A program made the position numbers. A stretch of DNA of 39,506 bases from a virus: UHGV virus genome UHGV-0354001. One strand, written 5' to 3'. Every line of letters starts with the position of its first letter. Positions within the stretch are counted from its first letter, which is position 1. Below are positions 18,001 through 21,000 of this stretch, piece after piece.

Positions 18001-21000
18001 GTTGTTGCCAGATGTGGCGATTAGTCTTGACCGTACTGAAGGTGCCACGCTGGAGTTTTACGAAGCTGAGGCGAAAAAGCAGGCGAAGCAGTTTTTCATG
18101 GATGTTGCTGCCGGGTTATGTGAAGGGGATGGTCCGTTGCCGGAAAAGCGCCCCGTAATTTTAGAGGCGCAGAATGTGTTGATAACCTACAAAGGAAAGC
18201 TACCGGGAAGAATTACTTGTTCTCTGAAGACTCCACCGGAATCACAACCTTAATTCACTGACCGGAACAGATAAACCTGTCCGTGGGCAGAAACCGATAA
18301 ATCCTGATAAATATCCATGAACGCAAAAATCAGATACGGCCTGTCTGCTGCCGTTCTGGCGCTGATTGGTGCAGGGGCGTCTGCGCCTGACATTCTCGAC
18401 CAGTTTCTGGATGAAAAGGAAGGCAACCACACCACGGCATACCGTGATGGTGCAGGTATCTGGACCATCTGCCGTGGTGCCATCATGGTGGATGGCAAAC
18501 CTGTCGTTCCGGGCATGAAGTTGTCGAAGGAAAAATGCGACCAGGTTAACGCCATTGAGCGTGATAAAGCGCTGGCGTGGGTGGAGAAAAACATCAGAGT
18601 GCCACTGACCGAACCCCAGAAAGCGGGGATCGCGTCATTCTGTCCGTACAACATTGGTCCCGGTAAGTGTTTCCCGTCGACGTTTTACAGACGAATTAAT
18701 ACAGGTGATCGAAAAGGTGCCTGCGAAGCGATTCGCTGGTGGATTAAGGACGGTGGCAGAGACTGCCGTATTCGTTCAAACAACTGTTACGGTCAGGTAT
18801 CCCGTCGTGACCAGGAGAGCGCGCTGGCGTGCTGGGGTATCGACAGATAAGCAGAATATTTTGCTGAAAAATGAGGAATGGCCACGCGGGCGGATAACAC
18901 GAAATCCTGCGAACTGGCGAAACGTAAGTGAATAAAAGTAAAAACCCCGTTTGTTGGCACCAAGCGGGGTTTTGTGTTTCTGACCTTGAGTAAGGCAAGG
19001 GAGAACATGGCGAAGTATAAACGAATTCTGTTGAGGTTGACTATGAAAAACGGCCTTGAACTGAAAGCGCCTGTAATTGATGACATCAGCAGAGCACTGG
19101 CTTTTGCCATTAAGTGGGTGGCGGTCGGTGTTGCTGTGTCCCCGATGCTGTATGGGCTGGCAAAACTGGTCATTGCGTTGAAATCATGAAGGGAGGATTA
19201 AGCATGCCAGACAAACTCATAACGCTGGCGAAGATCCTCTGTGTAATTGTCGGCATTTCATTTTCACTAATGCTGGTTGCTCTTTTTCTTTCCATGGCCT
19301 GGATGATGTTGTCTTCGTCGGGGCTGCTGGGGTGAACATAAACCGAATGCTTTCCGCGTTTATCGTTATTCTGCTGGTGGCCTGTGGTGCGCTGTGGATG
19401 GCAACAGACCATTACCGTGATAACGCGATTACCTACAAAGCGCAGCGCGATAACAAAGCCAGAGAACTGAAGCTGGCGAACGCAACCATTACTGATATGC
19501 AGGTGCGCCAGCGCGATGTTGCTGCGCTCGATGCAAAATACTCGAGGGAATTAGCCGATGCGAGAGCTGAAAATGAAACTCTTCGCGCTGATGTTGCCGC
19601 TGGTCGTAAGCGCCTGCGGATCAACGCCACCTGCCCCGGTACCGTGCGTGAAGCCACCGGCACCTCCGGCGTGGATAATGCAACCGGCCCCCGACTGGCA
19701 GACACCGCTGAACGGGATTATTTCATCCTCAGAGAACGGTTGATGACAATGCAGAAGCAGGTGGAAGGGGCGCAGGAATATATCCGCACTCAGTGTATTA
19801 ACTAGTATTTTTGTTATCCGGAGAATGCATGAAGAAATTACTGGTAACCGTAAAGCCTCTTCAGGGAACAATTCTGTTCCGTATTTTGCAGCGTGGTCGT
19901 GTTCTTGTTGAAGGTTCGTTCAGTGGTAAATGTATGCAATTACACTCCCGGACCTTTCAGGTGAATGCCACGAATGAAGAGCTAACCGTTGAGTGTACGA
20001 TGAATACCGCTAAATGCCGCATGGTATCCGCTGCATTACAGCGAGTGTGTTGAGCGACCTTATTATCCATGCGCGGTATTGTCGCCGTATCCCCGCATTA
20101 ACAGAGACCGCAGCCCGACCGGGATACTCCTCTGCGCGAGTGTGCGGGGATAATCAAAAACGATACACACCGGGGTTTACCGCGTTAACGGAGCGCGGCG
20201 TTGTCCCCTCATAGTCGCCTGTCCGGTGCGATGGTGGAAGAAACCGGACTACATTGAAAATGATAACCATTATCATTTTTGCGGGTCCTCCTGGTGGGGT
20301 GGGCCTGAACACGGGGCGGGCGGCGCGGAAAAAGGCGCATTTTTGTGATTTTATCGTCATCATCATCATAATGGTAACTTATTGTTTTTAATGTGTTTAG
20401 CATTAAAAAGATGATGATTGCGGTTGATTTTTGTTCGACATCTTTATATGGCGGCATTTCTTTACAAAAAAAGAGCCACTTTTGTTCAGCGGTTTATGTG
20501 GAGGGATGTAAATGGACGGCGAGCTGAAAAATATGAAGTTAAATATTAATCAACTGGCAGCCCTTTCAGGTCTGCACCGGCAGACTGTTGCCGCCAGAAT
20601 GGCGGATGTTCCTCTTGCACCAGGCAGTAATGAAAAGAAAAAACTGTATCTCCTGACGGATTTGATTATTTCGTTGCTGGAAAAACCACCGACTTCCGAA
20701 GATGAAGAGATGAACCCACATGATCGGAAGGCATGGTATCAGTCCGAGCGCGAGCGTCTTAAATTTCAGCATGAAACTGTTCAGCTTGTGCCTGTCAGTG
20801 ATGTCAGGCGGTCCTTTTCTGTCGTGGTGAAAGCGATAGTTCAGGTACTGGAAACCTGGCCTGACCGGCTGGAAAGGGACAGAGGGTGGACCGCATCACA
20901 ACTGAATGAAGTACAGATTGTGGTTGATGAGATCCGCGACACACTGGAAAAGGCAGTCATTGACTGTTGTGATGAGGCCGATATGTGAATCAGGTGAACG

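Follow-up and report, generated by a model that had tools for sequence, protein, structure and literature searches.

A very probable cos locus in the window

The DNA analyzed here, referred to as the window, is the whole 39,506-nt virus genome UHGV-0354001, and this report concerns its region at 20256-20444, where a palindrome resembling the binding site of the host iron regulator Fur lies beside a set of packaging elements of the kind found at the cos site of phage lambda. We consider it likely that this region is the cos of a lambda-like Escherichia coli prophage with a Fur operator at its left edge. The setting is the late region of a lambdoid prophage, in which the genes for holin (17683-17898), lysozyme (18317-18850) and Rz (19332-19805) are followed by about 700 nt without a convincing gene, up to the gene for the small terminase subunit (TerS; 20512-20988, plus strand), the gene for the large subunit (TerL; 20985-23108, plus strand), a W-like gene and a portal gene. 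TerL has 707 aa and belongs to the gpA family (Pfam GpA_ATPase, 2e-81; GpA_nuclease, 6e-84). TerS, of 158 aa, carries an N-terminal helix-turn-helix-like segment and is encoded by a gene overlapping the start of the gpA-type gene; it matches Pfam DUF1441, not Phage_Nu1, and its role is assigned from its position and from the annotation of relatives as phage terminase small subunit. Pfam labels DUF1441 as being of unknown function, though it occupies the Nu1 position here.

The leftmost packaging element is cosQ (GGGTCCT; 20283-20289, plus strand), which is identical to lambda cosQ and takes its function from the literature, where it is described as a 7-bp element that is highly conserved in lambda-like phages and suffices together with cosN and I2 (PMC4669245). 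It is invariant in our alignment of 26 distinct cos sites accompanied by a DUF1441-type TerS, in which the cosQ-cosN spacer and the R3, I1, R2 and R1 blocks are conserved as well. In the window that spacer is 24 nt long and ends in CACG; cosN, CACG/GGGCGGGCGGCG/CG with slashes at the predicted nicks, occupies 20310-20327 (plus strand) and aligns with lambda TACG GGGCGGCGACCT CG, its left half CGGGGCGG, with the conserved GGGCGG, being the same in both. The first G of cosQ lies 31 nt from the predicted nick, compared with 30 nt in lambda, and the distance from that nick (20313/20314) to the TerS ATG at 20512 is 198 nt, compared with 190 nt.

Cutting would leave a predicted 12-nt 5' cohesive end, GGGCGGGCGGCG (20314-20325, plus strand). 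Among lambda-like phages, positions 7-12 of the cohesive end vary naturally but a CG is kept beside each nick (PMC4669245), and a 12-nt stagger places a CG at both nick flanks of the window, in keeping with this lambda-like rule. The right nick position is uncertain because close relatives differ by 1-2 nt inside cosN: near-identical cos sites read GGGCGGGCGGCG in the window, GGGCGGGCGGGCG in the prophage VT1-Sakai and GGGCGGGTCGGCG in locus L058, and locus L060 also varies in length across the segment corresponding to 20314-20327, so that either the overhang length or the right-nick sequence varies between close relatives. For the exact virion ends of this cos subtype, public phage records gave only an approximate start, that of the mEp460_4F5 record, which begins 4 nt before the equivalent nick and thus lends approximate support; this phage shares the TerS type of the window. 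The end of the ev243 record is lambda-type, hence uninformative for the cosN of the window.

To the right of cosN, an A/T-rich spacer at 20326-20352 (plus strand; CGGAAAAAGGCGCATTTTTGTGATTTT) occupies the position of lambda I2 and aligns with lambda CGCGGGTTTTCGCTATTTATG, and a block within it, CGCGGAAAA.GGCTAGTTTTT, is kept across DUF1441-type cos sites. It leads into a putative cosB at 20353-20444 with the order R3, IHF site, R2, R1, in which binding by TerS and by IHF (integration host factor) is predicted. The R3-like repeat ATCGTCATCATCATCA (20353-20368, plus strand) contains a motif, GTCATCATCATCAT, kept in the 26 related cos sites, and is a candidate TerS-binding site; the R2-like repeat (20404-20419, minus strand), with a conserved GATG(A/T)(T/C)GA, is inverted relative to both R3 and R1; and the R1-like repeat GTTCGACATCTT (20433-20444, plus strand) has a conserved GTTC(A/G)(C/A)CATC. 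The R3/R2 and R2/R1 inverted pairs were also found independently by a repeat finder, R3 and R2 forming a perfect 9-nt inverted repeat. Between R3 and R2 lies an IHF I1-like site (20371-20392, no strand assigned) that aligns with, and is nearly identical to, lambda TAACTTAATGTTTTTATT at the I1 position; as read from the sequence, its minus strand AAACAATAAGTTA agrees with WATCAANNNNTTR at 12 of 13 positions, and its TTATTGAT motif is conserved among related cos sites.

From these features the region is, very probably, a lambda-type cos site. The original prediction had recognized here a G/C-rich cosN-like element and a cos lying about 195 bp upstream of the TerS gene, and both descriptions hold; it had overlooked cosQ, and the AT-rich element that it proposed as cosB at 20351-20395 is real but comprises just R3 and the IHF site, the left portion of a cosB that reaches to about 20444. 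When aligned with lambda, the palindrome, cosQ, cosN, the I2-like spacer and I1 appear in the same order and with nearly the same spacing.

A Fur-box palindrome adjoining cosQ

The palindrome is a perfect inverted repeat, AAAATGATAA-cca-TTATCATTTT (20257-20279, no strand assigned), whose 10-nt arms were recovered by repeat finding. Its 7-1-7 core, TGATAAC-C-ATTATCA (20261-20275), is centered at 20268 and differs by one mismatch from the Fur motif TGATAATnATTATCA, and an overlapping 19-bp segment, GAAAATGATAACCATTATC (20256-20274, no strand assigned), agrees with the Fur consensus GATAATGATAATCATTATC at 17 of 19 positions. This is the only site in the 39.5-kb window within three mismatches of the 19-bp consensus, against 0.01 expected per window from shuffled sequences. 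Perfect inverted repeats with arms of at least 10 nt occurred 0.42 times per window in simulated sequences, of which 28% had at least one, and the significance of the palindrome is its resemblance to a Fur site, the perfect 10-nt repeat alone being unremarkable.

The core center lies 15 nt to the left of cosQ, and only 3 nt separate the end of the palindrome from it. The original prediction, which had placed the palindrome exactly and noted its Fur-like core, offered two readings of it, as a cosQ-type packaging-termination element or as a site for a host regulator. The former is wrong, because GGGTCCT is absent from the palindrome and the true cosQ adjoins it downstream; besides, phage and PICI-like cos sites (PICI, phage-inducible chromosomal island) exist without any palindrome. 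The palindrome is the left neighbor of cosQ and stands outside the packaging signal. The latter gains support from the cryptic prophage Qin of E. coli K-12, in which the equivalent palindrome matches a published Fur site in position, down to the single base.

Two other identities were considered and set aside. As an IHF site, the palindrome matches WATCAANNNNTTR poorly, as read from the sequence. As an intrinsic terminator, it would form a hairpin with a single G-C pair, a folding energy of -8.5 kcal/mol and a z-score of -1.97, and it was not called by the terminator scan.

We regard binding of Fur to the palindrome of the window as probable, a prediction made from the sequence and from its relatives. 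The palindrome is taken as a site for Fur-Fe2+ because the constraints on its sequence, described below, match those of Fur. Against this stands the composition of the window variant itself, which has C at two consensus T positions, binding at this particular copy being extrapolated from relatives.

Known Fur sites at nohA and nohB

In E. coli K-12, the prophage Qin has a lambda-identical cos upstream of nohA, with its palindrome centered 233 nt before the nohA start codon (ATG). For nohA (1634391-1633822), Chen et al. (2007, PMC2189734) reported Fur sites of 22.3 and 12.6 bits at 1634624 and 1634630, that is, 233 and 239 nt upstream, and showed by gel shift that purified Fur binds there. It is this published "-233 nohA" site, positive by gel shift and by Fur titration, with which the Qin palindrome coincides. 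The same article cites an earlier recovery of a nohA fragment by in vivo selection for Fur-binding Sau3A fragments (Vassinova and Kozyrev 2000) and, for nohB of the prophage DLP12, lists a 25.3-bit Fur cluster with reference to the Fur titration study of Stojiljkovic et al. (1994). DLP12 (nohB/nohD) carries GATGATAATTATTATCATTTTGTGGGTCCT at the position equivalent to the palindrome of the window, and nohA and nohB appear in lists of Fur-regulated genes. Since the Qin copy is identical in sequence to that of lambda and binds Fur, the lambda-type element beside cosQ counts as an experimentally supported Fur site, and the copy in the window is its positional counterpart in a different type of cos.

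A peak summit at 1634625 in a chromatin immunoprecipitation sequencing (ChIP-seq) study is listed under "repressed by Fur" (Myers 2013, PMC3688515). In the older genome numbering that it uses, this summit is an FNR ChIP-seq peak, at most 1 bp from the center of the Qin palindrome (about 2601 in locus L004; about 1636600 in NC_000913.3). The FNR signal may be cross-talk from a Fur site, because the palindrome does not fit the half-site spacing of TTGAT-N4-ATCAA, as read from the sequence.

Recovery of the nohA fragment in vivo means that this DNA binds Fur in living cells, which would permit a role as a decoy, in which 100 or more phage copies titrate Fur and derepress the iron-uptake genes of the host and the stx1 promoter of Shiga toxin 1 (Stx1) phages. 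Multicopy Fur sites do derepress a Fur-controlled reporter, this being the principle of the Fur titration assay, and the close relatives of the window include the Stx1 prophage VT1-Sakai (locus L002), which has the same box. On the other side, a single site per genome would face the thousands of Fur molecules that a cell is generally known to hold, so that titration would be marginal, and the constant adjacency to cosQ would go unexplained; a decoy function is improbable to our mind.

Distribution and conservation of the box

IMG/VR was scanned for GGGTCCT-N18-26-CGGGGCGG, and the hits were analyzed together with the window, the lambda-type loci of K-12 and VT1-Sakai, a box being called when the 7-1-7 core had at most four mismatches. 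The 108 distinct cosQ-cosN sequences are distributed bimodally, with 53 at 0-4 mismatches (18 of them perfect) and 55 at 5-9. In 47 of the 53 boxed loci, the core center lies 13-15 nt from the first G of cosQ. Conservation reaches 1.2-2.0 bits from -7 to +6 of the core, the central base excepted, and 0.9 bits at +7; within the core, conservation is lowest at the central "n" (0.74 bits), and the flank from -30 to -14 stays below 0.4 bits. T-13 and G-12 are conserved as well, as expected of a second, overlapping Fur site shifted by 6 bp, in agreement with the second site of Chen et al.

The left flanks of 69 boxed loci are of 27 unrelated kinds and the right flanks of 6, and the box accompanies both Nu1-like and DUF1441-like TerS at 130-308 nt from the TerS ATG. 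With one genome scanned per species, genuine copies turned up in Escherichia, Shigella, E. albertii, Serratia, Buttiauxella, Kosakonia, Sodalis and Erwinia. Some 30 hits of the genome contig scan (within L128-L171) proved to be lambda control DNA left in assemblies of Colwellia, Streptomyces, Cohnella, Flavobacterium, Pedobacter and others, either as contigs of about 48.5 kb ending at the lambda cohesive end or as contigs of about 3.5 kb ending in GGTGAAAAAAAAGGTACCAAAAAAAA. The latter resemble what we take to be the Nanopore control amplicon.

Near-identical cos sites can differ in the presence of the box, and therefore recombination junctions fall at the left edge of cosQ; in the window, homology to other phages breaks at 20248 and 20289, framing a unit made of the box and cosQ. 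Both observations would suit a box without selected function, either a hitchhiker of long standing at the conserved cosQ end or a short conserved linker for lambdoid recombination, in both cases resembling a Fur site by chance, as would the fact that the box is dispensable. Such an origin is nonetheless improbable in our view, even somewhat more so than a decoy, since the conservation profile tracks the Fur model position by position, down to the extra TG 6 bp to the left, the box is retained in 27 unrelated flank contexts and several genera, and the lambda-type copy binds Fur.

Among loci with TerS followed by a TerL of at least 500 aa (n = 57), 39 have a box, 1 is intermediate and 17 have none, and every locus with a GC-rich terminator hairpin abutting cosQ lacks TerL. 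The latter are PICI-like. PICI satellites carry cosQ and cosN without a phage cosB, and their cos is packaged by the terminase of the helper phage (Fillol-Salom 2019). In IMG/VR, hairpin loci of this type are L086, L100, L022, L027, L067, L077, L098 and L104. The cosQ-cosN stretch of L086 is identical to that of the window, and for this reason L086 may parasitize the phage type to which the window belongs. The absence of the box from PICIs and from about 30% of phage cos sites shows that packaging can do without it.

The hairpins of the PICI-like loci bear on a further alternative, in which the palindrome would act as an RNA element, a weak hairpin with a U-run serving as terminator or processing site, or as a site for FNR or a phage protein. 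In its favor, the hairpin of the window is followed by UUUUU, PICI-like loci have a strong terminator hairpin and T-run at the same cosQ-side position, and the FNR summit falls on the Qin site. Yet the window stem has the single G-C pair and modest folding score already given, the consensus of the element is the Fur motif, its half-sites are misplaced for FNR, and the ChIP authors themselves place the site among those repressed by Fur, all of which makes this alternative very improbable.

Possible roles of the box

The tight coupling of the box to cosQ raises the question of a role in packaging. Fur bound 14-15 bp before cosQ could slow the arriving motor so that cosQ and cosN are recognized, or make termination dependent on iron; this is possible because the box is fixed on the side from which the translocating terminase reaches cosQ. 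The spacing is maintained over the 27 left flanks and two TerS families, while the distance to the TerS start varies, and bound Fur, with a footprint of about 30 bp, would reach up to cosQ. Lambda mutations that slow packaging reportedly suppress cosQ mutations, according to work from the Feiss laboratory. Against such a role, the box is not required, being missing from PICI-like satellites with the same cosQ and cosN and from 17 of the 57 phage cos sites; published work treats the 7 bp of cosQ as sufficient together with cosN and I2; and the tight spacing could reflect descent from one short ancestral unit. We hold a packaging function to be unlikely. The same low standing applies to the broader notion of the box as a working accessory of the chromosome end instead of a transcriptional operator, where Fur-Fe2+ 14 bp ahead of cosQ would be met by the incoming motor or would cover the DNA that enters the next host first. 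If true, packaging termination or the fate of the injected end would be tied to the iron status of the host, and a host metalloregulator would have been recruited into virion assembly, while PICI satellites manage without it.

The reading that we prefer, a lambda-like cos with a Fur operator at its left edge, would work as follows. The terminase would consist of the DUF1441-type TerS and the gpA-type TerL encoded directly downstream. By homology with lambda, TerS would bind the repeats R3, R2 and R1 of cosB, IHF would bend the R3-R2 interval, and TerL would nick cosN to yield the 12-nt 5' cohesive end, cosQ and cosN acting together to terminate at the end of the packaging run. Meanwhile, the host repressor Fur-Fe2+ would occupy the palindrome with high affinity and, in the resident prophage, impose iron-dependent repression on transcription that starts near cos or crosses the DNA there, as listed for nohA and nohB.

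That the Fur site serves transcription is a part of this reading that we advance only tentatively, and several points weigh against the reading as a whole. A simple sigma-70 scan and our own inspection of -10/-35 candidates found no convincing promoter over the box. The box keeps a fixed distance of about 14 nt to cosQ but lies anywhere from 130 to 308 nt from the TerS ATG, which is not expected of an operator that serves a terS promoter. Late transcription in lambda, which starts at pR' and is antiterminated by Q, should not be stopped by a bound repressor. In addition, the box is missing from every PICI-like cos site and from 17 of the 57 of phage type.

Genes to the left of the box were considered as its possible targets. 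At lambda-type cos sites, a DUF3950 gene (ylcI/ynfO) points away from cos and starts about 150 nt to the left of the Fur box, for example in L005 (1752-1946), in L004 (2757-2990) and in lambda (about 48109-48303, minus strand), where the record has nothing annotated in 47000-48502 although the reading frame is present. The palindrome as operator of this divergent gene was rejected, since only 24 of 61 boxed loci have the gene, all of lambda/DLP12 type, and the window has none. A minus-strand gene from 20212, 55 nt from the box, was likewise rejected because an in-frame TAA follows codon 11 and is kept in all relatives.

Neighboring sequence and occurrence

To the left of the box, the DNA sequence of the segment at 20088-20250 is conserved in 139 phage records, among them those of 933W-type Shiga toxin (Stx) phages, and has no match in Pfam or Rfam. 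It contains a perfect 10-nt inverted repeat (20088-20097/20143-20152), a GTCCGGT...ACCGGAC hairpin (20222-20250) and, on the minus strand, a conserved 11-codon mini-ORF (open reading frame), MRGQRRAPLTR plus stop, followed by a conserved small reading frame. An Rfam scan of 19300-20700 gave no RNA family at E <=1. Elsewhere in the window, other perfect inverted repeats are GCCTGAGGCTGTCTGCCTCAGGC (9361-9385) and AAACCCCGGTATCTGCTGATACCGGGGTTT (35313-35342), the second of which is followed by CTCTTT and looks like an intrinsic terminator.

Of 5426 complete E. coli genomes, 440 carry identical or near-identical copies that span 80% or more of the 191-nt element. The present analysis thus gives precise coordinates of cosQ, cosN and cosB for a prophage type that about 8% of these genomes contain and that is also seen in Stx-converting phages. 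It also identifies one of the strongest Fur sites of K-12 as a phage element fixed beside the packaging-termination signal, present in roughly two thirds of lambda-type cos phages, in several genera of enterobacteria, and missing from satellites that use the same terminase. A fur-dependent phenotype of the box, if true, would link iron sensing to packaging or to prophage expression, including in Stx1 phages, whose toxin promoter is controlled by Fur.

Comparison with known systems

The window shares with lambda the whole succession of palindrome, 3-6 nt, GGGTCCT, about 22 nt, CG/GGGCGG.../CG, I2-like spacer, R3, IHF site, inverted R2 and R1, followed after cosB by terS and a gpA-type terL. In lambda, the palindrome TGATAATCATTATCA (48452-48466) is a perfect 7-1-7 Fur motif 6 nt before cosQ, and the right end of the genome reads ...GTAGATGATAATCATTATCACTTTAC GGGTCCT TTCCGGTGATCCGACAGGTTACG before the cohesive end GGGCGGCGACCT. 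The differences lie in the R repeats, which are of CATCATC type in the window and of CGTTTCC type in lambda; in cosB, which is about 15-35 nt more compact in the window; in TerS, which is of Pfam DUF1441 type instead of Nu1; and in the palindrome itself, which has C for T at position -1 and arms that reach 10 nt.

The closest phage records are Stx2a- and Stx2d-converting prophages, at 96-97% identity, and the Stx1 prophage VT1-Sakai (Sp15), at 95%, the identity with Stx prophages spanning 20100-20620 and so including the palindrome, cosQ, cosN and cosB; VT1-Sakai has one extra G inside cosN compared with the window. The phage mEp460 has the TerS type and cosB layout of the window, and the right halves of the cohesive ends differ in the mEp460 group.

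Like the window, nohA and nohB have a 7-1-7 Fur palindrome 13-15 nt to the left of cosQ and about 230-245 nt upstream of a homologue of the small terminase gene. Unlike it, they are remnants of a lambda-identical cos, lie in cryptic prophages and are accompanied by Nu1-type genes; the window represents a different type of cos and TerS. PICI cos sites, such as that of EcCICFT073 (Fillol-Salom 2019), have the same cosQ and cosN as the window, and in PICI-like loci the Fur box is replaced by a GC-rich terminator hairpin and T-run abutting cosQ, TerL is missing, and the cos is often present as two inverted copies.

The text of PMC2189734 contains neither "phage" nor "cos", so that the link to cosQ is absent there; literature searches on Fur with nohD, Nu1, terminase and Fur box gave no paper linking Fur to cos; and the papers searched neither connect the nohA and nohB Fur sites with cosQ nor propose a phage function for them. 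The tight and widespread coupling of the box to cosQ, together with its absence from satellite cos sites, thus appears to have gone unremarked in those papers. The kind of element itself is already documented, in the sequence of lambda and in the Fur sites of nohA and nohB in K-12, and the window provides a further copy, set in a cos of the DUF1441 type.

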